A stretch of 64,000 nucleotides of DNA from a virus, in IMG/VR virus record IMGVR_UViG_3300021512_000003, positions 17,889 to 81,888 of that record; one strand, given 5' to 3'. Of this stretch, positions 30,962 through 64,000 are shown in pieces. Numbering within the stretch: the first letter of the stretch is position 1; each line of letters starts with the position of its first letter. Both the position numbers and the translations under genes were made by a program. The notes under the pieces are model-generated. The model was not told the origin of the DNA. It was given only the letters and a program-made list of their open reading frames with translations, and made no database searches.

Positions 30962-31018
30962 TAACCTTTTGATTTCATCAGTATGACTTTGTGTAGTCTG
31001 TATAGTCCAGTGTTATAA
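30962..31018 (+). other. attI-like site A (IHF box plus simple site ending G/TTATAA)
   Basis: 30968-31016 is identical to 57401-57449 (49 bp); GTT at 31012 heads array 1; IHF consensus at 30962-30974. Confidence 0.7.
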
Positions 31019-31218
31019 ATAATAACCAAGAACCTAGGAGGTTCTAAATACGAAACCAATAAACCACCTAAACTATAAAACGATTGAGAAAGACCTCAAC
31101 CAAGCACTACAATCCCACATCTCTTACGAAGATTGGATGGAGTTTATTGTAAGACTTGTAGGCGGCTCGGAAGACATCTACCAGATCAACTACATACTTC
31201 CAACCAGTGCTGGTATTA

Positions 31219-31431
31219 CTACAGAAGTTCCGCTTGCAGAAGCAACTTCTTTATACGTGGGTATAATTCGTCTTGTTGCTCCTCCGCAAGTGTGAGTACA
31301 TCCCTGAAAACTTGCTTATCCTCACTACCGTCTGCAAGGAGGATTTTGGGGACGAGGAGGTAATCTACCTCTCCATTGATATGCCTCTTTATGTTGTCCA
31401 GAACTCCTTGAAGTAAAAGTGTATCTATCAT
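31219..31431 (-). CDS. cassette gene, hypothetical
   Basis: 70 aa with a GAGG RBS, between site A and attC 31458. Confidence 0.55.
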   Translation of the reverse strand: MIDTLLLQGVLDNIKRHINGEVDYLLVPKILLADGSEDKQVFRDVLTLAEEQQDELYPRIKKLLLQAELL

Positions 31432-31457
31432 ATCTCTGTCCTCTTATCTAAAATTAT

Positions 31458-31515
31458 TTCTAACAAGTTAATGTTGTCGGAATTGCTACGCAATCCGCAA
31501 ATTAAGACGTTATGT
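31458..31515 (+). repeat. attC-like site
   Basis: TTCTAAC AAGTTAATGTTG..ATTGC TAC GCAAT..CAAATTAAGAC GTTATGT hairpin. Confidence 0.8.
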
Positions 31516-31516
31516 G

Positions 31517-31891
31517 TCAGTACTGCTCTCTCATTTGCTGTCGAAGTTGCACAATTTCATTCTTCAGCTTCTCATTTTCCTCCACCAAATCTTGATTCAA
31601 GTCTTTAACTACCTCATCCTTATGGTTGGAGTAAATAGCTTGGCGCAACTCCTTGTAATCATACGTGTGGTTAGCCCTCCCCCCACGGTATCCTTTAAAT
31701 CCATCCATCAAGGCGTTTCGGTAATTTGTCCAGTGATCAGAGTCAACGTAATAACTGACATCAGTATATAAATCGCCCAATACCTCATTCATCAAAGCTA
31801 CAAGTTTGGGTTTAAAGCTGTCCATTATTTTCTGTGCTTCTTCTTTCCCTTGCTCTGTAAGTTCTGGGTATAAAGGATAATCTTCACTCAT
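31517..31891 (-). CDS. cassette gene, hypothetical phage protein
   Basis: 124 aa; unit bounded by GTTATGTG and CACATAAC. Confidence 0.7.
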   Translation of the reverse strand: MSEDYPLYPELTEQGKEEAQKIMDSFKPKLVALMNEVLGDLYTDVSYYVDSDHWTNYRNALMDGFKGYRGGRANHTYDYKELRQAIYSNHKDEVVKDLNQDLVEENEKLKNEIVQLRQQMREQY

Positions 31892-31914
31892 TTTAATCTC
31901 TCCCGTTTAATCGC

Positions 31915-31978
31915 ACATAACAAAGCACTGAAAAATCGGACTGGCAGAAGAGCCAGCCACTTACAATAGGCGCTATAC
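31915..31978 (+). repeat. degenerate attC-like site (R' GTT changed to GCT)
   Basis: ACATAAC AAAGC...CTGGC..GCCAG...AGGC GCTATAC. Confidence 0.6.
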
Positions 31979-31997
31979 AGCCGCCTGTTACTAACAC

Positions 31998-32207
31998 TTA
32001 TGTATTTGACGGTTCAACTTCTTCGCTAAACTGTAACCCGTATGTAGCACATTCTGTGCAAATTTCAGTTTGAATGTACTCACCTTCTCGGTCGTTAGTT
32101 GTGTTCAGCCCATATCTGCTTACCCTAAAAACTGAGTCGCAGTTGATGCACTTTGCTATATAAGCTCTTTTGTGCTTATTACTATGCCTAATTAACTCCA
32201 CTATCAA
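31998..32207 (-). CDS. small zinc-ribbon protein
   Basis: CINC...CTEC. Confidence 0.55.
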   Translation of the reverse strand: MIVELIRHSNKHKRAYIAKCINCDSVFRVSRYGLNTTNDREGEYIQTEICTECATYGLQFSEEVEPSNT

Positions 32208-32769
32208 AACCTCTACTGGTAATATAACAACGGGCTGTTTTGTCTCTCACTTCATACCCCTCACATAACAAAGCGGCTCTTAGCATCTTGATAGTGTCTT
32301 TAATCCTCCTGATAGAGGGGAGCTTCCTGTATTGTGTAAATTTGTGAACCTCTCCAACAGACTCGTATATCCAACCATCACATCTAATTTTAAAACAATC
32401 ACCAACCTTTATACATTGTACCACAAGGTCTGGCTTTTGTGTTATGTGTTTTCTTGCTTTCTTCTTCAGAGTCACCACCGTCAAGAAACATGTTATCGTA
32501 GTGTTGATGAGGTAAAACAACCACAGAATCACAGGCATTACAGACACCAACCAGTCTTACAAGTCCAGAGCCATCACTAAAAGGTGTATTTCTTAATTGA
32601 AATGTTACATTTTGAAATGACTTGCAAGGACTACAAGCTGCTCTTTTAGTGTCTCCAACCTTCAATGTTTGCTGCATATCTTTGTTGTTAAAACTCAAAC
32701 CCACCCCTCTACTTGTACCATTGTTGTTTGACGTATCTTCATAAAACAAGAGTATAGCACACTTAAAAA

Positions 32770-35280
32770 TTAATGACAATCCTTCCAGCTTCCTCCAATA
32801 ACGTATCCTGCTGTTAGTGGTACGTTTAGATTAAAATGCTTCCCAGCCTCATTTACAGATTGTGCTGCAAGCTCTCCTGTTGGAGAATAAGCAATATAGT
32901 AATCATCTTTCTTCCCTTTTTTTATGTCACTCCACATAATACCACCTTTCTCCTCTATTGTCTTGAAATTAATTGCTTCTTTTTCTGTAGGAAATGTCCT
33001 TATGTCTACTAATTCTTTACTTACACTATTCTGCCCTTCATCGTGATAAGCAATAGACTGCATGGAACACTTCTTCTTTGTTACATCCTCTTTAAATGGA
33101 TTACCAGAGTAGCCTAGTGCTTTATATTTCCTGTCTAGCCACACCATAGCCCACTTCATGCAGATAACACCTGCTGACTGGAACTTCACATTCAAAAGTG
33201 AGTGTTGACTCCTCGTAGGTAGTTGTCTACCATCTATTGCTGTAAGGAATTTCTTATTATTTGTACTCCACTCTGATTCAACTTGTTGTTTGTATATCGC
33301 AAGAGGTAGTGCATCTTCCCAGAAACTCTCGACCTCTTTCTTCCCTTTTGCCAAGCTCCAGTTCATTTGCTTTGCAGCCCCTGCTGCTGAAGAGCCGTAA
33401 GTTAGTGAGTATTTTAATGTCTTACTGTCATCTCTACTAATACCTTTACTCTCTGCTCTTCTCGAATGAAGGTCCTGTGGCTTCTTAGCTATGAGGGATG
33501 TACAATATGGGTGGCCTTCTGTATCACAGTTCCAAACGTAGTGCCCCTCTATCCTAGCCTCTAGACCATCAGCATCGTACCCCTCTAAGAAAGCGTACCT
33601 TGGGTCTGCCATGAAGAGTGCTCTCATGTGTTCTCCGTACAGACTACTGCTTCGAGGTACGTTAGCTACCCCCTTATGCTGGAATCTTGAGGTAGCACAA
33701 CCACAGGGGTCTGCTGGGGTGGGTATGCGTCCGTCTATGGCTAACCTGCCATGTGAGAGCCACCCTGTAATCCTCTTCTTCTTTTCACTGGCAGGGGAGT
33801 AGATAGAGTTCTTCCTGTGTCTGTATGTAAGCCACTCTACGATGTGCTTTACATACCACACTTTCCTACCTAGCCTTACGAGGTTATCACACAACTCTTT
33901 GTCTGCATTCTTAGTGAAGACAGGGAGGCCAACAACCTTTAATGGTTTGTTGAGTTTATGCTTCAGAAGCTTCTCTCTAAGGCCACTAGGTCTCACTCTC
34001 AAATTAGCACACCTCTCTTTCTCGAAAGGTGTACCTATTGTGGCCTCAATATACCTATCTACAGCAGCTTCAAACTTCTCTTGTGTCAGCTTCTTCTTCT
34101 TACTATCCAGTGTTAGGTCTTTGTCTTTCCAGTTCAGAGGGTTCCACCCCAGTGTTATTAGGTATGCCTTAATGTCTTCTTGGTGAGACAGTAGCATTGG
34201 CTCTGTAGTAACAAGAGACTCTCCCTCTGGTAAGGGGAGATCCCACATCTTATTAAAGATCTCAACCTTTCTTGGAAGGATAAGGGTTTTCTTTACTCTC
34301 TTGCCTACCTCTCTTTCTTCGTGAGCTACAACCCTACCTCCGTGCTTTTCTAAGAATTTAGCTAGATTAGCAGACATAGTACCGTCCCCAACAAATTGTC
34401 CTTTTGGAGGTATGAACTTTTTAGCTTCTGTCTTCCCTATCTTTTTTGGTGGTAGGAGGTGTTCTACATCTTGCTCTATCTTATCCATTTTCTGTGTAAG
34501 ATCTTTTACGCACCACTCAGCAAGCTTAATATTGAACTTAAAGCCGAAGTGTTCTTGTCTTGTTATAACCTCTGCTACAGCCTTCTCTAACTTGTAAGCC
34601 TCACCCCAAGACCACGTACCCCACTCCTTCTGGAGCATCTTGTACACTGCTAGGTTAGCTATACAGTCTTGGATGTTGTAGTAGAGCATGTCTGCACCAA
34701 ACCACGTAAACCTGTCCTCGTCCCACTCTTTTCCATGTCTGAACTCAACCTTAAAAGAGCCTGCTGCTTGAGACATCTTTGCAAGGGAATGTCCACACCA
34801 CCTATCTGGGTTTAACACTTTAGACATAACAAGTGTGTCGTGAATGTATACGTCTTTACCACCTACCGTGTCAGACTCTTCTTTATTGAAGCCAACAGTG
34901 TATGGTTGGTCATAAAGTAGGTCCATTAAGAGAAGGTCGTAGTTAATAATGTTATGACCTATAAGCATCTTTGCCTCGTCTTTGATGAAGGCAGGCACCT
35001 CGCTTAGTGGGTAGTGTGTGTATTCATACTGTGTGTAGTGCTCTAGTGGCACAGTGAGTCCATTCGGGTATGTTGTGGTGTGAGATCTACCGTCAAACAG
35101 TATCTTGTCACCATCACAAAATGCAAACAACTCAGAAGTGGTTGTGTCAAGAAATACAAAGCAATGTGCCTTAAAAGAGGGAAGAAGCTTATATGGCATT
35201 TTGCTGTAGTCAATAGACTCATAATTGAGTAGGTTATTAGCTTCTGCATCAAATATTAACTTCCTTCCTGACATATTCAT
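32770..35280 (-). CDS. DNA polymerase, family A (T7-like) with a 3'-5' exonuclease domain
   Basis: FDAE, GHNIINYD, YNIQD; motif A DADGLEARI; motif B RDDSKTLKYSLTYG; motif C YHDE. Confidence 0.95.
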   Translation of the reverse strand: MNMSGRKLIFDAEANNLLNYESIDYSKMPYKLLPSFKAHCFVFLDTTTSELFAFCDGDKILFDGRSHTTTYPNGLTVPLEHYTQYEYTHYPLSEVPAFIKDEAKMLIGHNIINYDLLLMDLLYDQPYTVGFNKEESDTVGGKDVYIHDTLVMSKVLNPDRWCGHSLAKMSQAAGSFKVEFRHGKEWDEDRFTWFGADMLYYNIQDCIANLAVYKMLQKEWGTWSWGEAYKLEKAVAEVITRQEHFGFKFNIKLAEWCVKDLTQKMDKIEQDVEHLLPPKKIGKTEAKKFIPPKGQFVGDGTMSANLAKFLEKHGGRVVAHEEREVGKRVKKTLILPRKVEIFNKMWDLPLPEGESLVTTEPMLLSHQEDIKAYLITLGWNPLNWKDKDLTLDSKKKKLTQEKFEAAVDRYIEATIGTPFEKERCANLRVRPSGLREKLLKHKLNKPLKVVGLPVFTKNADKELCDNLVRLGRKVWYVKHIVEWLTYRHRKNSIYSPASEKKKRITGWLSHGRLAIDGRIPTPADPCGCATSRFQHKGVANVPRSSSLYGEHMRALFMADPRYAFLEGYDADGLEARIEGHYVWNCDTEGHPYCTSLIAKKPQDLHSRRAESKGISRDDSKTLKYSLTYGSSAAGAAKQMNWSLAKGKKEVESFWEDALPLAIYKQQVESEWSTNNKKFLTAIDGRQLPTRSQHSLLNVKFQSAGVICMKWAMVWLDRKYKALGYSGNPFKEDVTKKKCSMQSIAYHDEGQNSVSKELVDIRTFPTEKEAINFKTIEEKGGIMWSDIKKGKKDDYYIAYSPTGELAAQSVNEAGKHFNLNVPLTAGYVIGGSWKDCH

Positions 35281-35330
35281 AACCTATAGTTAAAGTAACA
35301 AGCTCCTGCACTGTTTTGCAACTTGTGCAT

Positions 35331-35672
35331 TTAGTCGTGCTTTGCCTCTTCCAAGTTAGCCAAGGCTGCTGCCAACTCATCTTCAAAGTAATGCTTACCT
35401 CCAATCAACACTGTACTTCGCAAGTCTTCTCCACACAACCACCCTATGTCAATGTCTGCACCAATGTCTTCACTAAAGACAACTCCACTGTTACTAGAAA
35501 GGATTTTTCCAGTAACACCTGTAAATAAAAAACATTTATCCGTATGACGGAAACGCTTACCACCCATAGACCACCTATACCCAAGGACAAATAAGCGCTC
35601 TTGTATAACCTTACTCACTTCCTTGTCGTAACCAATGTTAAACTTCATATTTTTAAATTCAAACATATACAC
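35331..35672 (-). CDS. hypothetical phage protein
   Basis: IQERLFVLGYRW; GAGG RBS. Confidence 0.6.
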   Translation of the reverse strand: MYMFEFKNMKFNIGYDKEVSKVIQERLFVLGYRWSMGGKRFRHTDKCFLFTGVTGKILSSNSGVVFSEDIGADIDIGWLCGEDLRSTVLIGGKHYFEDELAAALANLEEAKHD

Positions 35673-35973
35673 CTCTTATTTTATGTGATCTGTTGTACTG
35701 TGGGTACAAGCATAGCATACAGTACTGTGCGACACAAGTACGTTCCTTTTTCCTTACCTTTGGTAACCCGTTGTGCCATCTCTTAACTCTCTTATTAACC
35801 TGATAGCTTTATTTAACTTTAGGAAGACATCGGCAGCTACCTCTACATCGCACAACAAGTAGATAGATTGCTGCGTCTCCCTTAGCTCTGCAATAAAATC
35901 ATCTATCTCATTTTGTTGTTTTGTCATCACACTGCCTCTTGTTAAGTGTTAGTTGGTTTCACTCTAACCGGTG

Positions 35974-36735
35974 TTAAGCATACTGACTAATTCCCTCTTC
36001 ACACCACACATCACTCGACCCATCAAGACTAGCATGAGCAACCTTGTCAATAAAACTGTACTCCTCCTCACCCTGAAACTCTGAGACAAACTTGTACTTT
36101 CTTATAGCCATATACTTTGCTTCGTTCTTCATCATTGTAAAAAGTAGACCTTCCGATGTGTCTTCATTCTCAATGAAGCCTAAAGGTACTCTCTGAATAA
36201 ACTTTGTGGCAGCAAGCCAGTACGCTTCACTTACCTCTACCTCAGACAGATTAAACCTTCTAGTAACCATGTGCGGCATAGACAGTGCCCATCTTCCAAT
36301 TTCTTTTTCTAAAGGGGTTTTATTTAATAGACAATGCTGGTAACAGGCTTTCCCTAGAACACTCTTGAACTTACTGTAGTGCTGTAATGTCCTGTGATCA
36401 GCTACAGTGTTAAAATCATACAGCCCCGCCAAATTCTCAGCCCGACAGTTCAGCGTATCCTTATCTCTAAAAACTATCTTACTGCAATCTGAGTCAGGTA
36501 GGAAGTGTTTTGCAACAAGAGTGTGTACGAACACATTAAACACTCTCCCTTGTGTTGTTTTGCGGCTTAAAAACACCCTAAGCCTTGGGCTAGAGTTCTT
36601 GCGCCTTTTGCTTATATAAGGTTTCAACACCTTCTCTCCAAACTTCTTTGTCCAACTCATAACTCTACCAAGACTGCTGATATAGGCGTTATCTATTCCG
36701 TTAATAGCTTTCCACTCTTCACTACTCATAGTCAC
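35974..36735 (-). CDS. NUMOD4/HNH-like protein with a degenerate active site and helical C-terminal domain
   Basis: EEWKAI, YISSLGRV, VHTLVAKHFL; VFRDKDTLNCRAENL where VNH.DG...NN...NL is expected. Confidence 0.7.
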   Translation of the reverse strand: MTMSSEEWKAINGIDNAYISSLGRVMSWTKKFGEKVLKPYISKRRKNSSPRLRVFLSRKTTQGRVFNVFVHTLVAKHFLPDSDCSKIVFRDKDTLNCRAENLAGLYDFNTVADHRTLQHYSKFKSVLGKACYQHCLLNKTPLEKEIGRWALSMPHMVTRRFNLSEVEVSEAYWLAATKFIQRVPLGFIENEDTSEGLLFTMMKNEAKYMAIRKYKFVSEFQGEEEYSFIDKVAHASLDGSSDVWCEEGISQYA

Positions 36736-36744
36736 CTCTTACAA

Positions 36745-37020
36745 TTAAAACTCTGGTCTACACCCTTCACCATCACTCTCTTGTGCAGATGTATGCTTGT
36801 TCCTTGCTTCCCACTCTTGTATTGTATCACAATGTACGTCCTCAAGGAAGCCCTCTGGTGGTTCTATAAAGTCTCCTGTTGAGTTATCGTAGAACAAAGG
36901 AACCTTCCCAGTACGCCCATACTTCCTGTCGTCAAGGACTACCAAAGAACGTGTGTTCTTTTCTTTAGTGGTTTGGTCTGGGTCTTTATTCCCCTCTAAG
37001 CCAATCATGTAGTGACAACA
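36745..37020 (-). CDS. primase-helicase exon 2
   Basis: CCHYMIGLEGNKD...LDDRKYGRTG completes the SF4 helicase motif H4 and Arg-finger region. Confidence 0.85.
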   Translation of the reverse strand, partial: CCHYMIGLEGNKDPDQTTKEKNTRSLVVLDDRKYGRTGKVPLFYDNSTGDFIEPPEGFLEDVHCDTIQEWEARNKHTSAQESDGEGCRPEF

Positions 37021-37734
37021 CAAATATGTTCAAGGAGGTTCGCTACTACCTCCCCCGCACCACCTCTTAGGTGCTGCTGCTCTAGCTTTCACTAGAAGTT
37101 CAGACTATATCACCATCTCCTTATAAGAGATGCCTTCCATTTCCACCACCAATAGCTTGTGGTGTACGAGCTTACGCTCTAGTCGTTGAGGTTTACTAAC
37201 TTCTTTGTAGTACCCCTAGCCTTGTACCAAGCATCACCTGAGCAATACAGTGAGTTGGTTACAGCATGTTGTACGTTTTCTTGTTGGGATACTACCTCAA
37301 GATTACTTAAAGAGTTATTTACTGTGTTACCATCTATATGGTTTACAACTTCATTTTTATTAAGTTGTCTACCTATATGTACTGAAGCAATTAACCTATG
37401 TAGCATATAAAGCTTATCTTTTAGCCTTACACGCATATAGGGGTTTTTACTTCTTCCCCAGTGCTTGTAAGGTTTTAACCTCTTAATTTGAGGTTTTCTT
37501 GCTATACTATATATGTTACCTTTTAAGTCTACAAAGTATTTATCCATTTCTGGTACTTGCAGTAAATCTTGTTTTGTTAGTCTTACCTGCTGATTGCCCA
37601 TTGTAACATCCTTTTATTGTTCATCATTGTATCACACATAACTACCAAGCTCTACAACTATAAAAAGGCTTTAGGGGTTTCCAGCAATTAAAAAGGTTTG
37701 CAAAGAGAGTCACCTCTCTAGGGCGCTATTGTTA
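37021..37734 (-). mobile_element. group I intron (714 nt, IA-like) in the primase-helicase gene
   Basis: P1 GCGU/UAACAAUAGCGC with a U-G pair; P AAUUGCUGGAAA; Q AAUCAGCAGG; R UCAACGACUA; S GAUAGUC; terminal G; splicing restores SRSMMR-CCHYMIGLEGN in frame. Confidence 0.9.
37179..37601 (-). CDS. intron-encoded HNH homing endonuclease
   Basis: HRLIA...VNHIDGNTVNNSLSNLEVVSQQENVQHA. Confidence 0.9.
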   Translation of the reverse strand: MGNQQVRLTKQDLLQVPEMDKYFVDLKGNIYSIARKPQIKRLKPYKHWGRSKNPYMRVRLKDKLYMLHRLIASVHIGRQLNKNEVVNHIDGNTVNNSLSNLEVVSQQENVQHAVTNSLYCSGDAWYKARGTTKKLVNLND

Positions 37735-39231
37735 ACGCATCATAGACCTACTACCAGTGAACTGAGAACTATAAACCTTCCCTCCAAACTCATGTGGCTG
37801 GCCTTTATCTGGTGCTTTAAGATGACAGAAGCAATAATAAGTAAAACCTAAATCTATACTCATCTTACTAATCTCATCAGCAAACCTATCAAGCTCCGTG
37901 TTTGCCTCGGAGGGAGTCATCCCTGTTGTAAGCCTGGTTATCGGGTCAATAATGATGTCTTCGCAATGCTCAATAAGAACTGCATGACGTATAGCCCCTT
38001 TCAGCTCATCCCAACTACACCTACCATAGTTATTATACAGGCAAAGACGTGGGCCTGTCTTGTCCGAGGCTGCTATTAAGTCTTCTTGAGTGAAGTAGTT
38101 TGACCTGTCAACAGGAGGGGCTTTCTCTTGGAACTCACCACAATCATCAACATAGAGGACAACCTCCTCTCCTTTCTCATTAAAGAAGATAGCCTTCTCT
38201 GGATTAGTGAAGTCCTTCTTAGACTCCTTACCAGCTACACGGTGAATCGTCTCCGTTGTCGGTTCCTCGAATTTAAACACAGCAACCTTCTGAGGCTTAC
38301 CTAGTGAGTTCTTATCTCGCGCCAATATGTGACTAATTAGTTTATCTGCTAGACAACTCTTGCCCTGCTTCACACCTGCCCCAAAGTAATACCCCTCCCC
38401 CAACCTACGTCCTAATGTAAGTCTTGTTAAAGACCTCCAAGGCCACGTCTTACCTACCACAGGTAACTTATGTGTCTCCTCTCTAATCTCCTCGTAGAGA
38501 GTAAAACCTTCTGGTGTGTACTGGGAAGGCTTCATCAGCATCCAGTAAAGAGCTGTACTCCCCTCTTTCAAGTAGACATCACAAGGGTCACTATCTTCTG
38601 GTAGTTTTGCCACAAGCATATCTGGGAATAGTCCATATACGTCAGCAGTGGCCTCATTGCCTCTCTTTATCTTCTTTAGTCTCTCTTGTGGTGTTGCACT
38701 ATCGTTATCAAAAGCAAACACCTTCTCACTAAATTTATTCAGGTAACGTGTATTTGCTTTCTGTCCTAAGTTCTGAACAGCGTTAGCTGTCCCACAACCA
38801 ATACTTAGTGTGGTGGGATTACCTTTACCTTTGTAACCTTCCTTTAGGCATTGCCACATAAGCATACAATCTATCTCACCCTCACTAACAAATACTTTCT
38901 TCCCCCCAGTCTTATTACCAGATACCAGCCCAAACAAATCGCACTTAACACCGTGATACCCTATAGAGGTGAAGTGGAAGTTACCTTGCTTTGGCTTAGT
39001 CAAGTCTCGCTTCTTATAACCTACAATCCTATCTTCTATTGTGTAGGGGAAGTAGTGAGCTATAGGTGTACGGCCATCACTACTGCTAAGCTCAGTTCTA
39101 ACACCAAAATGCTCTGCTGTCTTTTGTGTGATCTTCCTTTCTTCTATAGGAAGGATAGGAAAGGTGAGTACGTCTGCTAACGTCTGCTCCTTCACTCTCC
39201 CATAGCTTACTCCTGCTGTAGCTTTATTCAT
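37735..39231 (-). CDS. primase-helicase exon 1 (TOPRIM plus SF4 helicase)
   Basis: SEGEID, FDND, Walker A GAGVKQGKS, IIDPIT and CHL; start placed at ATG 39231 (GGAGAG RBS). Confidence 0.92.
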
Positions 39232-39427
39232 CTTCTCTCCTGTTTGGTATGTCATAGTCTCACCTATCCATTAAAGCCTTTTAATTATCTGGTGTGTGTA
39301 TACATAGTTAATACCTTATCGTTAATACCTCATCTTTTTATAATGTACATACTAAGACGTTCTCTAAAACCGTACAGTATTCTTGTTCCTCTGTTAGCCT
39401 TACCACAGGCTTACTACTACTGGTTTG

Positions 39428-39484
39428 TAAGTGCTTGATTTTACTCCTACGACCTTGCGTAGTCTGTATAGTCCAGTGTTATAA
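39428..39484 (+). other. attI-like site B
   Basis: Ungapped match to sites A and C with identical core GTAGTCTGTATAGTCCAGTGTTAT; GTT at 39478; IHF consensus at 39428-39440. Confidence 0.7.
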
Positions 39485-39486
39485 AC

Positions 39487-39687
39487 CTAATCATTGTTAG
39501 GTTTTGGCTTAAAGTCACCATCAGCATCGCAATGCTCAGGTGGCCACCCATGCTTTCTAATATTCATCGCTCTAAGCGGATACTTTATTAAATACCTATA
39601 GAGCGTCTCAAGCATTAACCCAATACCCACAATAATAAAAAATGTAAGAACTGGACTGTCGCTCATAAATTCATAAATTGTTGTCAT
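39487..39687 (-). CDS. cassette gene, small membrane protein
   Basis: One TM helix, then HGWPPEHCDADGDF; unit ends GTTATAAACC and GGTTTATAAC. Confidence 0.7.
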   Translation of the reverse strand: MTTIYEFMSDSPVLTFFIIVGIGLMLETLYRYLIKYPLRAMNIRKHGWPPEHCDADGDFKPKPNND

Positions 39688-39709
39688 ATCTATGGCCTGT
39701 TAAGTCGGT

Positions 39710-39781
39710 TTATAACAAAGCAGTCAAGCTGACAGTCTCTACGCTGCGCTTCGTTCCTGCCGCTTACTTATTGCGTTATGT
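39710..39781 (+). repeat. attC-like site
   Basis: TTATAAC AAAGC AGTCAAGC...GCTTACT TATTGC GTTATGT; extra C in L''. Confidence 0.9.
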
Positions 39782-40468
39782 TGCACTAATTCTATCTTGT
39801 GCAATCTTAAAGTATTCTTCATCTAGCTCAATGCCAATAAACTTACGACCAAGGTTTTTACAAGCTACGCCTGTGCTACCGCTACCTAAAAACGGGTCGA
39901 GTATTGTTGCACCTTTATCACTAAACTTTATCAATAGGTATTCCAATAAATCAACTGGCTTTTGTGTTGGGTGTAATTTATTGCCAGTTCTATTGAACTT
40001 TAAAATATTAGGATCACGCTTACCGTTTATAAGTCTACGTCCTTTCTGTATAAAAATAATCATTTCATACTTTGGTGCAAAGTCGGCTTTTAAATCACCC
40101 ATACTAGTGTTGTTCTTTTCCCATATAAGTATATTCTTTATTTTAAATTTTTGCTCTAGTGCTTGCTTGAATTTATCAATATTATGAAAGCTACAAAAAA
40201 CATAATGCGCCGTATTGTCCGCAGCAACTCTAAATAATTCATCAATCCAAACATCAAGCCATCTTAAGTCTTTATCGTTTTTTATCTTACTGTATTTCTC
40301 AATCCTATAGTTACTCTGAAACTCCATACCATATGGCGGGTCGGTCAATATCATATCAACTGAACCATCAGGTATTTCTTTCATTCTTTCTAAGCAGTCT
40401 CCTTGCATCAACCAAGGATTTAGATCTTCTTTTTCTATATCTGCTAGTCGTTCATTTTTGTAGTGCAT
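39776..40468 (-). CDS. cassette-borne DNA adenine methyltransferase (N6/N4 family, beta class)
   Basis: TDPPY, HPTQKP and LDPFLGSGST; stop codon lies inside the attC GTTA. Confidence 0.92.
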   Translation of the reverse strand: MHYKNERLADIEKEDLNPWLMQGDCLERMKEIPDGSVDMILTDPPYGMEFQSNYRIEKYSKIKNDKDLRWLDVWIDELFRVAADNTAHYVFCSFHNIDKFKQALEQKFKIKNILIWEKNNTSMGDLKADFAPKYEMIIFIQKGRRLINGKRDPNILKFNRTGNKLHPTQKPVDLLEYLLIKFSDKGATILDPFLGSGSTGVACKNLGRKFIGIELDEEYFKIAQDRISAT

Positions 40469-40493
40469 TTTAATCTTTCCTTTAGTTCGTGCA

Positions 40494-40569
40494 ATATAAC
40501 AACAATTTCAAAAAGACACGTACAGTTTGTTCCAAACGTGCCCTTAGCATTTTAAATTAAGGGTTATGT
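40494..40569 (+). repeat. attC-like site
   Basis: ATATAAC AACAA TTTCAAAA..CACGT..ACGTG..TTTTAAA TTAAGG GTTATGT. Confidence 0.75.
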
Positions 40570-40584
40570 TACTAAACCAAGCGT

Positions 40585-40973
40585 TTACCAACTACATAAA
40601 TCATGCTGTTTATTTAGAGAGTGCATCTCTACATCTTCGCACGTCTCAATATCAAACATTCCAATATGGCAATCACTTGGCTCAATATTTAAAGTCTCAG
40701 CTAGCCATTTGTATGCTTCTTTTCTTTTCATATCTCCAAATTTCCATAATGGATCAAAGGCTCTATGCGCTGCGCTTTTTGCTTTTCTTAGCTCTTTATT
40801 TGCCAACCTACCTAATGGCTTTGTTGTTCCTTTGTGTGTACCAACGTAGGCATCACAACCAACACAAGAGTAAAAACTCAAGCTAAATAAATCCTTTCGG
40901 TGTGGGTAAACTTCCTTTCCTGTAACTGCCTTTGAGAATTGTTTGCAGTATGGGCATGTTGGTGTCAAATTCA
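40585..40973 (-). CDS. cassette gene, zinc-finger protein (DUF3268-like)
   Basis: CPYC, C..CDAYVGTH, PLGRLA, AH.AFDPLW and CHIGMFD; start MNLTPTCPYC. Confidence 0.8.
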
Positions 40974-41000
40974 TTCTATCAATCCTTTTTAGTGGTGGTA

Positions 41001-41073
41001 ACATAACAAGGTTTTCAAAGCGGACACATTACAGCGTACCGCTTTCATTTAGCCGTTTAAAACGAGGTTAGGT
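41001..41073 (+). repeat. attC-like site
   Basis: ACATAAC AAGGT TTTCAAAG CGGAC...GCCG TTTAAAA CGAG GTTAGGT. Confidence 0.8.
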
Positions 41074-41099
41074 TGCAAAAACAACATTTAAGTTGTCCA

Positions 41100-41323: not shown

Positions 41324-41382
41324 GCCTAACAAGGCTGCTGTTTTGGAAGCGCTGAAGCGCTCCACAAAGCTTTACGTTATAT
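41324..41382 (+). repeat. attC-like site
   Basis: GCCTAAC...TGGAAGCGC TGAA GCGCTCCA...GTTATAT; near-identical to 57689-57747. Confidence 0.85.
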
Positions 41383-41843: not shown

Positions 41844-41915
41844 ATCTAACAATCACATTAAGTCACTTCGTTCGGACTGTCGCTGACGCGTCAGCCGCTT
41901 ATGTGGGCGTTATAT
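41844..41915 (+). repeat. attC-like site
   Basis: ATCTAAC AATCACATTAAG..CGGACTG..CAGCCG CTTATGTG GGC GTTATAT. Confidence 0.8.
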
Positions 41916-42185: not shown

Positions 42186-42241
42186 ATCTAACAATCAATT
42201 TAAACCGGATTGCTACGCAACCGCTTAATTGAGCGTTATAA
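42186..42241 (+). repeat. attC-like site
   Basis: ATCTAAC AATCAATTTAAACCGGATTGC TAC GCAACCGCTTAATTGAGC GTTATAA; near-identical to 58787-58842. Confidence 0.9.
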
Positions 42242-42250
42242 GGCTTAGCC

Positions 42251-42529: not shown

Positions 42530-42586
42530 TTATAACAAGGCATTGCAGCGGACGCGCTCTGCGCGCCGCATAGTTTTGCGTTAGCT
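42530..42586 (+). repeat. attC-like site
   Basis: TTATAAC AAGGC ATTGCAGCGGACGCGC TCT GCGCGCCGCATAGTTTTGC GTTAGCT. Confidence 0.85.
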
Positions 42587-43093: not shown

Positions 43094-43155
43094 AGCTAAC
43101 AAAGCAACTCAAATCCGACTCCGCTGGCGCTTGCGGTTTAGCTGAGGCGTTATGT
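43094..43155 (+). repeat. attC-like site
   Basis: AGCTAAC AAAGC AACTCAAATCCGAC...GCGGTTTAGCTGAGGC GTTATGT; extra C and extra A on the left arm. Confidence 0.9.
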
Positions 43156-43387: not shown

Positions 43388-43428
43388 ACATAACAAGGCA
43401 GTCAAGCAGACTGCTGAAAGCGTTGCTT
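43388..43428 (+). repeat. truncated attC-like site (left arm only) ending array 2
   Basis: ACATAAC AAGGC AGTCAAGC AGAC matches the left arm of 39710; no L' partner. Confidence 0.65.
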
Positions 43429-43488
43429 TTTTCAAGTTCTTTGGGGATTTCATGTTTCATTCCTCTTAGTGTAAAGATGTATTTTACC

Positions 43489-54835: not shown

Positions 54836-54838
54836 GTT

Positions 54839-55282
54839 ATGACAAAAGATGACGCAGTAACTTACGCAACAGAAGCACACAGGGGTCAGATGTATGGCGA
54901 TAAACCTTACGTTTACCATTTAGAGCAAGTGGCAAAGGAGTACCTCTCGTTTTTCAGAGGGAGTGCAGTAGAGGATGGTGTAGTTGTAGCCTACCTCCAC
55001 GATGTCTTAGAGGACACAGATAAGACAGAAGAAAACTTACTACAGGCAGGCTTCTCTCAAGGAGTTGTTTCTTGTGTTAGCAAGCTCACCTTTTGGAACA
55101 AGTTATCACGGGAGCAGTACATAGAGGACATTAGAGTGTTGCGTCATAGTCCGACAATACTACGTGTTGCTTGGGAGGTTAAGGTGGCAGACACAATGTC
55201 AAACTTGAGACACAGTGTAAAGGAGGGTAACGTAAGGAGAATATCTAAATACATGGAGCAAGTGAGGAGACTTTATGCTTAA
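54839..55282 (+). CDS. HD-domain hydrolase (RelA/SpoT hydrolase or Mesh1-like)
   Basis: AHRGQ..PYVYHL, LHDVLEDT and VKVADTMSNL motifs. Confidence 0.85.
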   Translation: MTKDDAVTYATEAHRGQMYGDKPYVYHLEQVAKEYLSFFRGSAVEDGVVVAYLHDVLEDTDKTEENLLQAGFSQGVVSCVSKLTFWNKLSREQYIEDIRVLRHSPTILRVAWEVKVADTMSNLRHSVKEGNVRRISKYMEQVRRLYA

Positions 55283-57394: not shown

Positions 57395-57451
57395 TAAGTG
57401 TTTGATTTCATCAGTATGACTTTGTGTAGTCTGTATAGTCCAGTGTTATGT
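57395..57451 (+). other. attI-like site C
   Basis: 49 bp identical to site A; GTT at 57445 heads array 3; IHF consensus at 57395-57407. Confidence 0.7.
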
Positions 57452-57688: not shown

Positions 57689-57747
57689 TCATAACAAGGT
57701 GCTGTTTTGGAAGCGCTGAAGCGCTCCACAAAGCTTTAGTGTTATAA
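57689..57747 (+). repeat. attC-like site
   Basis: TCATAAC...GCGC TGAA GCGC...GTTATAA; near-identical to 41324-41382. Confidence 0.85.
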
Positions 57748-58112: not shown

Positions 58113-58178
58113 TTATAACAAGGCGTTTCACGCAGACCGCGCAAAGTGACGCGCGACTGGTGAACTTAGTCGTTAGTT
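58113..58178 (+). repeat. attC-like site
   Basis: TTATAAC AAGGC GTTTCACGCAGACCGCGC...GCGCGACTGGTGAAC TTAGTC GTTAGTT. Confidence 0.85.
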
Positions 58179-58402: not shown

Positions 58403-58464
58403 ACCTAACAGTCGCATTAAAATCTAACTTCGCTGGCGCTTCGCAGTTTATGCGAGCGTTAGAG
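58403..58464 (+). repeat. attC-like site
   Basis: ACCTAAC AGTCGCATTAAAA...GTTTATGCGAGC GTTAGAG. Confidence 0.8.
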
Positions 58465-58786: not shown

Positions 58787-58842
58787 ATCTAACAATCAAT
58801 TTAATTCGGATTGCTACGCAACCATTTAGTTGAGCGTTATAA
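58787..58842 (+). repeat. attC-like site
   Basis: Near-identical to 42186-42241. Confidence 0.85.
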
Positions 58843-59064: not shown

Positions 59065-59286
59065 TTATGTTCTAAATGTTAGCCCACAAATAATTGCGAT
59101 AATAGAACTAATAATTACAACATTTACAACACGGTTGTTCCTCTCCCGACGATTTTTTTTTGCGAAGTCCTGTGCGTAGCTTAATTCCTGTTTAGTTACA
59201 GGTGTGCCAAGTTTTATGGCTTGGCGTATAGAGAAAAAACTTTTCACTACTGCCACTCCAATATTAAAATAAACATAACAAAGCAC
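59065..59286 (-). CDS. cassette gene, small membrane protein (start uncertain)
   Basis: Unit bounded by GTTATGTT (59064) and AACATAAC (59272-59279). Confidence 0.5.
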   Translation of the reverse strand: MLCYVYFNIGVAVVKSFFSIRQAIKLGTPVTKQELSYAQDFAKKNRRERNNRVVNVVIISSIIAIICGLTFRT

Positions 59287-59305
59287 TTAAAAATCAGACT
59301 GTCTT
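59273..59305 (+). repeat. truncated attC-like site ending array 3
   Basis: ACATAACAAAGCACTTAAAAATCAGACTG matches the left arm of 31915; no right arm. Confidence 0.6.
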
Positions 59306-59323
59306 CAACTACAAACTACACAG

Positions 59324-59542
59324 TCACTTCCTCGCAACACGCTTATAGTGTGCATTGGTTTTGTTAGTTTTTACCTTCTTCTTTGAAGTTAAGTGCCACA
59401 ACCCACACGCAGTACACGCATACGGTGCTAGGTTTTTTGCTTCCCAACGATAAGACCTTGACTTAAACTTCACAGAGACACAAAGGATCTTTACATAAAA
59501 CCTCGCATCTTTCTTTGTTTGAAAGACTATCTTATTGCACAT
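59324..59542 (-). CDS. small basic zinc-binding protein
   Basis: MCNK..F.TK..A and PYACTACGLWHLTS. Confidence 0.65.
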   Translation of the reverse strand: MCNKIVFQTKKDARFYVKILCVSVKFKSRSYRWEAKNLAPYACTACGLWHLTSKKKVKTNKTNAHYKRVARK

Positions 59543-60771: not shown

Positions 60772-61221
60772 TTACTGTTGTATCTTAATAATCTGTTTAG
60801 GGATATGCACACCCCCGTACTCAGTAACACCTACTAACTCGAACACCTCTCCGACTAAATCCTTACCCTCACCACTAAAACCAACTAATCCGTTGACAGC
60901 ATTGCTTATAAAAGGGTCTACTGTGATAGTATTTCCTAGAATAGTGCGACAAACTAAGGTGTTCTCTTTTGTGTAGTTCTCAACAAATACTTGCAGCTTC
61001 ACACCAGTAGTGTATCTGGTCTGCTGGCTTGATAGTTCTTTACTTACCTCAGACACCTCTTCACGTAAGCTTACTACCATATCTATAGTCCCCAAAAGAA
61101 AGATAGTATTAGAGCCTCTGTAATCGCCACTACCTGCACAACGAACTCCACGCTCCTCAACCTCCAGTAAAAGATCTTTACACTTACTTGCAGGTAAGCT
61201 AGATATAGATGTTGTAGTCAT
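60772..61221 (-). CDS. hypothetical protein
   Basis: 149 aa with a GAGGA RBS. Confidence 0.55.
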   Translation of the reverse strand: MTTTSISSLPASKCKDLLLEVEERGVRCAGSGDYRGSNTIFLLGTIDMVVSLREEVSEVSKELSSQQTRYTTGVKLQVFVENYTKENTLVCRTILGNTITVDPFISNAVNGLVGFSGEGKDLVGEVFELVGVTEYGGVHIPKQIIKIQQ

Positions 61222-62256
61222 ACATCTTTCCTCTTAGTTATTAAGACATATAAGTACCAATACTCCAAACACTGTATACGGCAACAACCCGCATGTTGCT
61301 AAATCTCTTTGTGAACAAAAAGCAGATTACACAGTCGGCGCGATAGTTCTTTTGTTGTCATTCTTTCTCCAACTGTTTGCTGCTGTAGTTCCACAAGCAA
61401 CTCTTCAATTAGTACCCTCTTCCTACAAAGGAATTGTTGCTGGTACTCTTCTATGTTTTTTAGTTCCTCTGCTTCTCTCTGTGATGTTCCGTGGAATGCT
61501 ACAAAAAAGAACACAACCACAGAGATTGTGACAACCACCATAAACAGATTAAGAAAAGTCTGGACTTCCATAATAAACCTATACATCAGATTAAAGTTTG
61601 TTGTCAAGCTCACGCTGAGAACTCTGCCCTTCTGGTTGGTGCGAATCCTCCTCAAAAGTAAACTTAGTAGGAGCCTTAACTTTTATTGTAAGTGTGGCAA
61701 ATACCTCGTTACCTACAACGTAAAAATCTTCACATACACTACTCAGTAGTTCCATAATGAGCCTCTAACAAGTTAATGTTGGTGGGAGAGATGCACCTAC
61801 GTCAGCCTCTGAGTGCAGAGGAACGTCTCTCCACTCAGTTAAGATTGGGTTTTCGGCTCTTAACTCGTGGACGCTTATAACCGTCCTGTATTGTAAGATA
61901 GTCTTCCCAGTACTCTCTAACCTATAACGTAATTCAAACATAATAAGTAACTCCATGCGACACCGTACCCAAGGCGTCTACAGTTAAACCTAAACTCTAG
62001 AGGTGTGTGGTACGGCACACCTCAGCACAGTCAGCTGACTGTGGCCCGAGTCACCCTACAAAATTTAAGTAAGCTCTTTGAGTAAGGATTCTATCTTGTC
62101 TGTCTTATTTAAGAATAAAGTGAATTCTTGCTCAAAGCATTTTAATTTATCCAACATACCTAAAGCGTCCTTAACACATTGCCTTTCTGCCATTAATTGC
62201 TGTATTAGTTTAATACCTTCTTTGTCCATAATCTTTAACCTTACGTAAGTAAATGC

Positions 62257-62315
62257 TTATAACAGACTATTAAAACCGACTGCGCTGACGCTTGCGGTTT
62301 ATGGCTACGTTATAT
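62257..62315 (+). repeat. attC-like site (isolated)
   Basis: TTATAAC AGACT ATTAAAACCGACTGCG..CGCTTGCGGTTTATGGCTAC GTTATAT. Confidence 0.8.
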
Positions 62316-62443
62316 TTCTTCTAAATAAACTCTTCAATGCCATACCAGTCCAACTAAAGTACTGCTTGTGTACATATAGTGTGATTGAAAGCACACCCAG
62401 CAAGAGTATTTACTAATCACGCCTGACTTCTCTTTAAAAACCC

Positions 62444-62662
62444 TCACCAACGTCTCCAGTCAGCATAGTCACTCATCTCCACAGACACCTCTACATGCTT
62501 ACCACAATATAAGACGTATACAAACCTTATACAGGTGCTTGTAAAACTGACTTCTTGCAAGTCCCACCAAGCATCTTCACCAAAGGTGTCCAAAAAAGAC
62601 TCCTCGTTGTCAAAGATATAGTGGATCTCTTTCTCTAGTTCAGTAAGGAAGGTCGACATCAC
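62444..62662 (-). CDS. hypothetical acidic protein
   Basis: 72 aa, coupled to the endolysin stop codon. Confidence 0.55.
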   Translation of the reverse strand: MMSTFLTELEKEIHYIFDNEESFLDTFGEDAWWDLQEVSFTSTCIRFVYVLYCGKHVEVSVEMSDYADWRRW

Positions 62663-63000
62663 ATAGCACCCCAGTGAGTCATTGAGTAGTGGTTCCCGTC
62701 ATTAAAGCGACCTCCCCACCTATTATCTTCATGCTGCTCTTCCCACCAAGCACCTATTAAGGCGTGGTCTGATGTCTGCTTCAGCAAGACACCATTCTTC
62801 ATTAGGTTGATGTCTTGGGCTAGTTTAAGTTTATGGCAAGAGTTCTTATGACCGTAGCCCATCTTCTCCCCAAACTCACCGTGTACTCGCCTGTCCCTGA
62901 AGGAATCTCCTAGCCTTACATCATACCCTAGTGAGTGTATGTAGTCAAGTAAGCAAGGGAGTTGTTGTGCAAAGAGTTCTTGCTTCTTTCCTAATTTCAT
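62659..63000 (-). CDS. endolysin, peptidase M15 family (L-Ala-D-Glu peptidase-like)
   Basis: SCHKLKLAQDINL and RWGGRFNDGNHYS zinc-ligand motifs. Confidence 0.85.
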   Translation of the reverse strand: MKLGKKQELFAQQLPCLLDYIHSLGYDVRLGDSFRDRRVHGEFGEKMGYGHKNSCHKLKLAQDINLMKNGVLLKQTSDHALIGAWWEEQHEDNRWGGRFNDGNHYSMTHWGAM

Positions 63001-63001
63001 A

Positions 63002-63325
63002 TTAAGTGCCCCCTCCTTTTGAAAGGAGAAGTTCAGAAAGAATCTCTACAAGAGCCTCACTTGTTTTAATAAGACTTTCCTCCACCACTTTTTGTGTAGT
63101 CACGAAGTTAGTCAGGGCAGGCTCTCCTAGCGTAGTGAGTCTGTGGTAAAACTCATTCCAATACTTATCTGTGTCTACCCTCTTTGTGAGTTTTTTTGTT
63201 TGCTCTTGCATCTCAGCACCAGTAACACCTTTGAAGTTTAAAGCTAGGTAGATACTGTCCTCTACAAAAGTATCAAACTGAAGGACTTCTCTCAGAAGCT
63301 TCTCTGTACTTGTCACATCTTTCAT
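63002..63325 (-). CDS. hypothetical protein
   Basis: 107-aa ORF upstream of the endolysin. Confidence 0.55.
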   Translation of the reverse strand: MKDVTSTEKLLREVLQFDTFVEDSIYLALNFKGVTGAEMQEQTKKLTKRVDTDKYWNEFYHRLTTLGEPALTNFVTTQKVVEESLIKTSEALVEILSELLLSKGGGT

Positions 63326-63946
63326 AAACCCACCCTGTTACCCTTAGCCCTACCCCTTGTAAGGCTTTATCTGTAGTTGTTCTTTGGAACAGTATTGTAA
63401 CGCCTACGCGCCCTGTGTGGCGCGAGTAGAGAGGCTTGGCAAATCATTGTCGGCCCATTTGAGCATCTACTTATTTCGCTTGCCTGCGCAGACGGTGGCA
63501 AGGCTCCGATTGCACACCACCAGGAACCCCCAGCGATCGACCCCTACGCTGGGTCATGCAATTCTGTATATTCTCTGCTATATTGCTTGCACAGAATGTA
63601 TAGTTTGAGCGTGTGCTCCGTTCCACTTAAAAGAGTATGCAGTCAAACCTTGTTCACTGGCAGCTCTCACTGCAGGTGATTTGTCCTCGTACAAAATGTC
63701 AGTGCAAAGATCATCAAAACGTCTCATCCCTTCTATCCAGAAAAATAGAACATAGGAAATACATTACAACAGTATCTATCTCGTTCTTAACCCTTGCTGT
63801 TCTAACACTGACATTAGGTCATAGAGTTCAACATACGTCCAAACAGCATGTATCCCCAGAATAATTATGCAGCCAAGAAAAATCAACTGCTGTAAGTAGT
63901 AATAATCTTTCACCTGTAAGCACCCCACCAATTAATATATAAACGA

Positions 63947-64000
63947 ACATAACAAGGCCATTAAATCCGACAGCGTAGCTGCGGTTTATGGCTACGTTAT
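63947..64000 (+). repeat. attC-like site at the window edge
   Basis: ACATAAC AAGGCCATTAAATCCGACAGC GTA GCTGCGGTTTATGGCTAC GTTAT; right arm identical to that of 62257. Confidence 0.85.

Follow-up and report, generated by a model that had tools for sequence, protein, structure and literature searches.

Integrons are regarded as bacterial devices, and phages are known to carry only a few stray attC sites. Qi et al. (2023; PMC9892861) reported 17 attC clusters lacking an integrase in 10,705 phage genomes, with attC sites lying between small genes, including DNA methyltransferase cassettes, in lytic phages; a host integrase is the presumed enzyme, and IntI1 recombined 5 of 6 tested phage sites. 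The examples described in their main text are small, with TJE1 having 3 sites and 4 ORFs. Two other kinds of phage element are relevant, namely the Xer-exploiting phages (CTX, and TLC with XafT), whose DNA is recombined by a host tyrosine recombinase, with TLC encoding a small activator of XerD (PMC6744903 and PMC9226527), and the PeSLs of T4-type myoviruses, which are composite promoter-terminator motifs with documented gene shuffling (PMC2839356 and PMC4122927). Here we describe a lytic-type myovirus from a deep-sea vent, IMG/VR record IMGVR_UViG_3300021512_000003 (81,888 bp), which has 21 such sites, arranged in four arrays, and encodes no integrase. Coordinates refer to a 64,000-nt window (positions 17,889 to 81,888 of the record) unless genome positions are indicated.

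Identification of attC-type sites

A preliminary description, made from the sequence alone, had listed 18 attC-like hairpins in three arrays in the window. We found a TAAC...GTTA element at all 18 positions, and covariance models confirmed 15 of them, so that the observation holds, with three sites being degenerate. Model R2, built from the phage sites, scored 15 of the 18 at E ≤ 0.007, and model R3, built only from sites next to bacterial IntI genes, scored the same 15 at E ≤ 0.004. The lack of covariance-model hits had been named in advance as grounds for rejection; Rfam contains no attC model (0 hits) and the IntegronFinder attC model was not applied, R3 serving as a surrogate. Run with filters off over the whole genome, R3 gave no hit in the structural region or in the + strand early region, where the preliminary description had likewise seen none, the only other row being the reverse strand of one site at E 0.68. 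Six more sites and a fourth array were located in the 17.9 kb outside the window, giving 21 distinct sites, all on the + strand. A 127-bp terminal repeat of the record itself contains one site, so that the last site in the window (63950..63999) and the site at genome position 76 are the same element.

Array B begins with leader B (30969..31015, +), followed by a site at 31461..31512 (R2 58.0 bits, E 1.2e-10; R3 42.3 bits) and a degenerate terminal site at 31918..31990. Array C begins with leader C (39435..39481, +), followed by sites at 39713..39778 (R2 40.6 bits, R3 41.0 bits), 40497..40566 (R2 26.6 bits, E 0.007; R3 27.3 bits), 41004..41070 (42.9 and 37.3 bits, respectively), 41327..41379 (28.1 and 35.5 bits), 41847..41912 (42.0 and 29.1 bits), 42189..42238 (59.1 and 41.5 bits), 42533..42583 (47.9 and 37.6 bits) and 43097..43152 (51.5 and 36.0 bits), and at its far end by a truncated site at 43390..43442. 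Leader D (57402..57448, +) is followed by sites at 57692..57744 (28.2 and 37.1 bits), 58116..58175 (50.3 and 49.1 bits), 58406..58461 (49.8 and 29.2 bits) and 58790..58839 (56.9 and 31.1 bits), and by a degenerate 91-nt site at 59276..59366, whose 5' half resembles that of the site at 31918; further sites are present at 62260..62312 (55.0 and 23.9 bits) and 63950..63999 (57.6 and 37.7 bits). The three degenerate or truncated sites, first listed at 31915, 43388 and 59273, gave no model hit; they retain the 5' half (ATAACAAAGCACT..GAC, or ATAACAAGGCAG..GAC for 43388) but lack a matching 3' half, and lie at the far ends of arrays.

The 15 confirmed sites are 50-70 nt long from TAAC to GTTA. In an alignment fitted with model R1, 90.4% of cells were paired, against 28-40% when partners were slid, and 14 of 22 pairs showed double changes; none of 500 shuffles reached the observed values, although it should be noted that the alignment had been fitted to the model. 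The TAAC/GTTA pairs were invariant in 18 of 18 aligned sites, and the boxes were present in all 24 listed elements. DNA folds showed single-base bulges on the 3' arm of the minus strand, and the models scored the + strand at 60-80 bits but the reverse strand of the same sites at 12-17 bits (for one site scored with a model trained on integron sites, 60.8 against 14.3 bits). These unpaired bases are those expected of a bottom-strand substrate; that they are recognised by an integrase is inferred.

Reciprocal recognition of phage and bacterial sites

R2, built from 18 phage sites, gave 60 hits at E ≤ 1 in 10 stretches taken from nine genomes that carry TIGR02249 integrases, including all 8 of the 20-kb stretches, and every hit lay on the strand that reads away from the integrase gene, whereas R2 gave 0 hits in 20 loci of related phages. 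Conversely, R3, built from 39 of those bacterial sites, gave 22 + strand hits in the phage genome, with E-values from 7e-12 to 4e-3. The training sites of R3 were picked and aligned by R2, which biases it towards phage-like sites.

Cassette ends and crossover position

If crossovers fall inside GTT, the first bases of a cassette should complement the bases before TAAC of its own site. We found that the 6 nt after GTTA at the left border matched this expectation at a mean of 4.43 of 6 positions across 23 junctions, against 1.82 of 6 for the site's own right flank, with a total of 102 against 55.6 ± 6.1 in permutations (0 of 20,000 reached it). True integron arrays, examined as a positive control, showed the same rule (3.63 against 2.47 of 4, n = 30), as did related phage arrays (110 against 56.4 ± 5.9, 0 of 20,000). 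The rule fails at three junctions, at genome positions 77164, 80148 and 81838, the second of these being the site 62260..62312 of the window (0 of 6). The crossover can be placed only within the conserved GTTA(T). In 8 of 27 sites, the TTA of GTTA is the stop codon of the neighbouring minus-strand gene, so that gene and stop lie wholly inside the unit bounded at G|TT. For example, the stop codon of the cassette gene at 39776..40468 (-), an N6/N4 DNA methyltransferase (PF01555, E 8.4e-42), is the complement of the TTA of the preceding GTTA. Another cassette gene, at 40585..40974 (-), encodes a DUF3268 zinc-finger protein (PF11672, E 5.5e-38), and a 49%-identical homologue sits in a bacterial cassette in the canonical orientation.

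Change of cassette order exactly at GTT had been proposed beforehand as a criterion. In other vent samples, contigs from two other studies join leaders and sites in other combinations, with ends at 39478, 39481 and 31012, inside the leader GTTA, and contigs of run X1 diverge from the window at 41847 and 41912; however, the sequence between was not known for any of these joints, and some may come from repeats within the same genome. Related phages carry different cassettes at the same kind of leader.

Gene polarity

Of 21 cassettes, 3 had genes on the same strand as the attC top strand and 18 on the opposite strand, compared with 31 same and 4 opposite of 35 in true integrons, indicating that the cassettes are not simply borrowed from host arrays. 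No sigma-70-type promoter was seen in the leader by eye. The co-directional arrangement read from a promoter at the platform, characteristic of a complete integron, is not found here.

The leader and its partner gene

Each of the four arrays starts at a conserved 47-nt leader ending in GTTA. The leader sits directly upstream of a gene of approximately 100 aa and unknown fold, neither the partner gene nor its spread across unrelated phages having been seen in the preliminary description. The four leader copies are identical over the last 23 nt before the crossover, 17 leader copies align without a gap, and conservation ends at GTTA. The leader occupies the place of an attI site, but its use as an insertion site is inferred only from its position and from the break in conservation, and these observations do not decide whether it is one; by eye, it lacks an obvious inverted AAC box to the left of GTTA. 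The gene-leader-array module recurs in 12 otherwise unrelated viral contigs and one Cellvibrio MAG contig.

Absence of a recombinase

A recombinase encoded outside the window had been one of two enzymes suggested, and a search of the rest of the genome for it had been proposed. The complete genome gave no match to PF00589 or TIGR02249 at E ≤ 10, and Pfam scans of 50 proteins found no recombinase, so this candidate is ruled out, leaving a host enzyme, which is untested. The locus is a group of two or more attC sites with no integrase nearby, and lacks the adjacent intI gene of a complete integron.

Interpretation

The data are best explained by genuine integron-type gene cassettes, a reading to which we assign a probability of about 0.6. 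In this view, each swappable unit consists of one or a few small genes plus a folded attC site (TAAC box, bulged imperfect stem, GTTA box), and units have been inserted, removed and reordered by site-specific recombination inside GTT, the four arrays each growing from a leader ending in G|TTA. The enzyme would most likely be an integron integrase of the host cell, acting on the folded minus (bottom) strand while phage DNA is single-stranded during replication, and the cassette genes would be read towards the leader, as part of the phage's own leftward operons, and on into the core gene behind it. Our analyses establish the sites, their attC character, the crossover position, the leaders and the absence of a recombinase, whereas the identity of the enzyme and the occurrence of recombination during infection are inferences, recombination by an IntI enzyme not having been assayed. 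Against this reading, no host is known and no integrase was tied to this phage, gene polarity is the reverse of that in bacterial integrons, and the leader lacks an obvious inverted AAC box. In addition, the leader is conserved across phages of 42-51% G+C, and since attI sites are normally specific to their own integrase, a single leader serving many host integrases is awkward. The integron-type interpretation put forward in the preliminary description is supported, having survived every test that we could run. Its belief that such sites are unknown in virulent phages is out of date, given the work of Qi et al., but it was right that a multi-array platform of this size is not described there.

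Alternatively, though this is doubtful, the platform may bring its own specificity factor, in which the protein encoded behind the leader (the 'GDRIDNY' family) binds the leader and recruits or activates a host tyrosine recombinase (IntI or XerC/XerD), in a manner resembling the activation of XerD by XafT, or is itself a new kind of recombination protein; the sites would be attC-like in form, but the system would be a phage-native analogue of the integron and not a client of the host integron. The gene is the only one shared between this phage and all 8 other platform-bearing records examined, and in 13 of 13 loci the leader sits at a fixed distance upstream of its start codon. Model hits lie just upstream of the gene, on the opposite strand, in every locus with enough sequence (31 of 31 hits in loci L039-L051), and the layout, with the gene pointing left, then the leader, then attC top strands reading right, is that of intI-attI-cassettes. 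Leaders C and D keep about 12 nt of the gene's 5' end, and the integrases next to the platform in 5 temperate records belong to three unrelated families, so that none of them is the conserved partner. On the other hand, the leader includes the gene's ribosome site and start, so the linkage could simply be a gene with its 5' region, and a complete related phage (G004) has 3 sites that obey the cassette-end rule but no detectable copy of the gene and no integrase. The protein, at 97 aa, is small for a recombinase and has no recognisable fold or motif (model pLDDT 75; best Foldseek E-value 0.49; best VIA Z 5.1). A wider form of this reading, which is not excluded but is also considered unlikely, is that a phage-native counterpart of the integron travels between unrelated phages as a module of the GDRIDNY gene, the leader and attC-type cassettes coded on the reverse strand, with the small protein, and not an IntI encoded beside the site, giving the insertion site its specificity, by recruiting a host tyrosine recombinase or by a chemistry not yet known; because of the inverted polarity, phages would keep a cassette pool of their own, separate from that of their hosts.

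It is less likely that the arrays are relics, captured or built long ago and now static, with the sites serving at most as spacers or RNA hairpins. The absence of a recombinase, the three degenerate sites and the three junctions breaking the cassette-end rule are consistent with this possibility, but 21 sites keep intact boxes and bulges, and the four leader copies identical over the last 23 nt before the crossover, the differing joints in other vent studies and the different cassettes of related phages argue against it.

That the hairpins are terminators or PeSL-like signals, with genes shuffled by homologous recombination between repeats, is very unlikely despite their position between genes, since none of the 9 full sites in array C was flagged as an intrinsic terminator (four terminator-like sites were found against 3.4 expected, the only one on a hairpin being the truncated site at 43398-43414), all sites share one strand whichever way the neighbouring genes run, the boxes are invariant while the stems covary, exchange at random points inside repeats would not produce the cassette-end complementarity, and models trained on integron sites recognise the phage sites strand-specifically.

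About 10 kb, or 12%, of this lytic phage genome is organised as cassette arrays headed by the leader, and the same leader and partner gene appear in unrelated lytic and temperate phages. If the arrays are active, phages have a dedicated site-specific way to gain, lose and reorder small accessory genes, methyltransferases among them, which bears on how phage accessory genomes turn over and on traffic between phage and host gene pools. The leader and the small gene also make testable the question of whether an attC cassette system can run without its own integrase.

Comparison with known systems

The Xer-exploiting phages integrate whole genomes at dif and do not shuffle cassettes; no dif-like site was sought or found here. 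PeSLs are likewise repeated intergenic hairpin motifs in the variable regions of myoviruses, linked to gain and loss of small genes, but they are promoter plus terminator motifs thought to act through homologous recombination, whereas the sites here have attC boxes and bulges, lack a T-run and show a crossover signature at GTT.

The clusters of Qi et al. share with this phage the attC sites between small genes, the methyltransferase cassettes and the lack of an integrase. However, this phage has 21 sites in four arrays, Qi et al. report no conserved leader and no linked gene, and the TJE1 and PH101 cassettes are described as oriented in the same direction, typical of bacterial cassette arrays, whereas polarity is inverted here. 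We did not find the scale, the leader, the linked gene or the inverted polarity in print, although larger cases are not excluded among the 17 clusters, as those listed in their Supplementary Table S1 were not compared.

The sedentary chromosomal integrons of Gammaproteobacteria share the site architecture, a single site orientation reading away from the platform gene, cassette-end complementarity and mostly single-gene cassettes of unknown function, and models cross-recognise the sites in both directions. They differ in that the phage has no IntI gene, the gene beside the insertion site encodes a protein of approximately 100 aa and unknown fold, most cassette genes (18 of 21, against 4 of 35 in integrons) lie on the opposite strand, and there are four insertion sites, inferred as such, in one genome.

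General features of the phage genome

The record is 81,888 bp long, the window comprising bases 17889-81888, and its first and last 127 bases are identical. A repeat of exactly this length (window 63874-64000, equal to genome 1-127), which itself contains a full attC-type site, may simply be the overlap of a circular assembly and not a physical terminal repeat, although this is our inference. The genome encodes a tail sheath, a baseplate wedge, a tape measure, a family A DNA polymerase and a primase-helicase. The polymerase is at most 42% identical to that of any GenBank phage, and a megablast search of array C, the second of the three arrays in the window, against GenBank phages gave no match. 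Among public sequencing runs, the best holder, probably the source sample, is labelled hydrothermal vent metagenome.

Phages related through the primase gene share the core block of primase, 87-aa gene and polymerase but have no homologue of the array genes, and the arrays are therefore additions to a conserved backbone. In this phage, two HNH/NUMOD4 homing-endonuclease-like genes (window 35974-36729 and 37179-37601, minus strand) lie between the polymerase and primase genes, whereas in the relatives the 87-aa gene and the polymerase directly follow the primase. In addition, four copies of a 34-nt direct repeat (ACTCAAG...TTCAATTTC) were found in window 45518-46043 at spacings of 367, 52 and 73 nt, where transcription switches from the minus to the plus strand; these could be early promoters or an origin. 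The plus-strand early region (window 52391-55282) holds a second N6/N4 DNA methyltransferase, a radical SAM protein and an HD-domain protein, none of which is flanked by attC-type sites. Outside the window, at genome 1398-4517, a 1,039-aa ribonucleotide reductase is interrupted by an intein with a LAGLIDADG endonuclease domain and lies between an attC-type site (genome 1294-1347) and a 97-aa gene discussed below.

Identification of the attC-type sites

The preliminary description, made from the sequence alone, had listed 18 imperfect hairpins between small genes, and this observation held: a TAAC...GTTA element is present at each of the 18 positions. A search of the window against Rfam at the gathering threshold returned no hits, and RNAalifold applied to a plain MAFFT alignment of 16 sites predicted no pairs, the alignment not being in structural register. 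We therefore built a seed covariance model (R1) from six clear copies with a hand-written structure, followed by model-based realignment. With filters off, R1 found 18 hits at E <= 0.01, all on the + strand, 11 of which were not in the seed. On this alignment, which was fitted to the model and is thereby favoured, the four box pairs were invariant (18 of 18), 14 of 22 pairs showed compensatory double changes, and 90.4% of cells were paired, against 28-40% when partners were slid by 1-3 columns. A second model (R2), built from these 18 hits, found 21 hits in the pieces of this genome and none in 20 loci around the primase gene of related phages, about 442 kb being searched in all. Fifteen of the 18 sites were supported, while those at 31915, 43388 and 59273 retain only the 5' half and sit at the far ends of arrays. 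Six further sites were located outside the window, at genome 832, 1294, 5234, 5779, 6033 and 7734.

Similarity to the sites of bacterial integrons

A search of the whole contig with an attC covariance model had been proposed in advance as the means of checking the attC reading. IntegronFinder's own model was not run, and we instead made the test reciprocal, using as a starting point among bacteria a contig of an uncultured Cellvibrio MAG that carries a related platform. In 301 genomes of its class, 112 carry an integron integrase above the TIGR02249 cut-off; this count includes three unpublished genomes (G053, G155 and G310), on which no other claim rests. We retrieved 20 kb on the array side of eight of these integrases. 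R2, trained only on phage sites, found rows of hits in 8 of 8 regions and, counting two short contigs of the MAG as well, gave 60 hits at E <= 1, every one on the strand that reads away from the integrase gene. From 39 of these hits at E <= 0.001 we built a third model (R3), which, over the whole phage genome with filters off, gave 22 + strand hits with E values of 7e-12 to 4e-3. These represent 21 distinct sites, since the end repeat counts one site twice, and the only other row was one reverse-strand echo at E 0.68. The training set of R3 was chosen and aligned by R2, which biases it, but its sequences nonetheless all come from beside true integrases. The interpretation of the hairpins as integron attC sites is thus supported.

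Crossover signature at the cassette ends

In an integron the crossover falls between G and TT, and the bases after GTT therefore belong to the next cassette and complement that cassette's own R'' box, not the box of the site that they abut. We found that, over 23 junctions, the 6 nt after GTTA of the preceding site or leader matched the reverse complement of the 6 nt before TAAC of the cassette's own site at 4.43 of 6 positions, compared with 1.82 of 6 for the site's own right flank. The total was 102, against 55.6 +/- 6.1 under permutation, and none of 20,000 permutations reached it. However, three junctions, at genome 77164, 80148 and 81838, do not follow the rule; several genes lie between the sites there. 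Applied in a 4-nt form to the true integron arrays, the same test gave 3.63 against 2.47 of 4 (n = 30). In addition, in 8 of 27 sites the TTA of GTTA is the stop codon, read on the minus strand, of an ORF of 50 aa or more in the cassette to its right, which fits units bounded at G|TT. Three cassettes, at genome 883-1344, 6081-7784 and 48901-49397 (the last being window 31013-31509), begin with the same bases after GTTA (TAAATA...) and end with the same bases before TAAC (TATTTC), and form a paralogous cassette family, although only these shared ends were compared.

Conserved leaders at the heads of the arrays

A repeated sequence proved to have four copies, ending at genome 4871, 48903, 57369 and 75336, the last three being at window 31015, 39481 and 57448, and each copy heads an array. 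The four copies are identical over the last 23 nt and diverge immediately after GTTA. A search for this 23-nt core in a viral contig collection gave no matches, but a 20-nt core of the leader occurs in three metagenome contigs. One of these, L037, is bacterial and reads dusA, a 392-aa tyrosine integrase, a 105-aa gene, the leader, a methyltransferase cassette and an attC-type site; the platform of 105-aa gene, leader and methyltransferase cassette (L037 3691-6351) sits just inside an island whose integrase abuts the tRNA-dihydrouridine synthase gene dusA.

Inspection of the leader by eye revealed no sigma-70 hexamer pair at 16-18 nt spacing on either strand, the leaders themselves not being submitted to a promoter scan. 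An IHF consensus is present on the minus strand of all 4 leaders of this genome and of 10 of 13 leaders of relatives. However, it overlaps the start codon and codons 2-3 of the adjacent small gene, so that its conservation could be due to coding, and we favour neither explanation.

A small gene linked to the leader

The 105-aa gene of L037 is a homologue of a 97-aa gene that lies directly to the left of leader A, the copy ending at genome 4871, at genome 4532-4825 on the minus strand. The family is small, with 12 proteins found counting the query, none of which is named or has a Pfam domain, and it contains an invariant G-x-R-I-D-x-Y block. Searches of the 97-aa protein against Pfam and NCBIfam gave no match, Foldseek against the PDB gave a best E-value of 0.49, a wide search with VIA gave an uninformative best Z of 5.1, and the ESM Atlas gave no usable hit; the protein thus has no recognisable fold.

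A search with the family alignment found 12 viral contigs and one contig of the Cellvibrio MAG, and in 13 of 13 of these loci the leader lies at the same distance upstream of the start codon. Seventeen leader copies, including the four of this genome, align without a gap over 47 nt, and conservation ends at GTTA. R2 hits lie just upstream of the gene in every locus with enough sequence, and all 31 hits in the loci designated L039-L051 are on the strand opposite to the gene. These arrays also obey the cassette-end rule, with a total of 110 against 56.4 +/- 5.9 and none of 20,000 permutations reaching it. The records are otherwise unrelated to this phage: of its proteins, only the 97-aa one matches all eight fetched records, and their G+C content ranges from 42% to 51%. 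One of them, G006, is a complete 39.8-kb phage with two arrays and no integrase. A search with the family alignment in five phages related through the primase returned nothing, although an empty result of this kind is not evidence of absence.

Possible source of the recombinase

The preliminary description had inferred that the enzyme was either a host IntI or a recombinase encoded outside the window, and had named a search of the rest of the genome for a tyrosine recombinase as a check. No tyrosine recombinase was found in the genome, and Pfam scans of 50 of its proteins revealed no recombinase of any kind, but HNH endonucleases, methyltransferases and a ClpP-like protease, among others. A complete related phage, G004, has three sites that obey the cassette-end rule, as read by eye, and neither an integrase nor the small gene was found in it. 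The Cellvibrio MAG that holds a platform contig also has two integron integrases on other contigs, though binning of a MAG is uncertain. The sites are real and of attC type; the enzyme, by contrast, is a matter of inference, and on balance a host integron integrase is the likeliest. Conservation of the leader across hosts, however, still allows a role for the small protein.

We also considered whether the integrases beside the platform in temperate relatives might be the system's own enzyme. Five temperate relatives have an integrase next to the small gene, but these integrases belong to three unrelated families and sit at the edge of the element, and in L037 the integrase abuts dusA like an ordinary island integrase. 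We therefore rejected this possibility and read them as ordinary prophage integrases.

Population evidence from other samples

Contigs of four runs were compared with window 30500-50400. Two runs from other studies (X2 and X3) have a contig joining 39481, the A of the GTTA of leader C, to 41847, the first base of a site, and X3 has a contig that places the first cassette of array C (from 39478) behind a different site. Both X2 and X3 have a joint from 31508 back to 31012, sharing GTTAT, which is what a circular or tandem first cassette of array B, the first array in the window, would give. In X1, contigs match only 41847-41912 and diverge at both ends of that site. For each of these joints the intervening sequence is not known, and similar cassette ends elsewhere in the genome can mimic some of them; the joints 31016->41336 and 31017->31461 and a loose end at 31467 are probably cross-matches to such ends (genome sites 1294 and 7734). 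Stretches without cover in X2-X4 show nothing, and runs X4 and X5 contain under a tenth of the sampled words, and no habitat was deduced from them. We treat the joints as supporting evidence, not as proof.

Cassette polarity and comparison with known systems

The orientation of R2 on true integrons defines the top strand. In true integrons the longest ORF of a cassette lies on the top strand in 31 of 35 cassettes, whereas it does so in 3 of 21 in this phage and in 1 of 27 in the related platforms. Cassette genes therefore run towards the leader and the small gene, matching the leftward transcription units in which the arrays sit. The phage cassette protein at window 40585-40974, a DUF3268 protein, has a 49%-identical homologue in a bacterial genome (L108 528-2011), where the integron cassette encoding it is flanked by R3 hits on the same strand as the gene, which is the canonical orientation. 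The two pools thus share gene families but not polarity.

The closest published report is that of Qi et al. 2023 (PMC9892861). Literature searches on attC sites and integrons in phage genomes, on CALINs in phages (from 2022) and on integron-like gene cassettes and hairpins in bacteriophages returned no description of a phage leader, a linked small gene or inverted cassettes, and a preprint (10.1101/2024.07.02.601686) mentions CALINs only in its methods. Although Table S1 of Qi et al. may list phage clusters with more sites than their main text shows, the phage analysed here is the largest integrase-less cassette platform in a phage that we could find described, and it belongs to a family defined by a conserved leader and a small gene.
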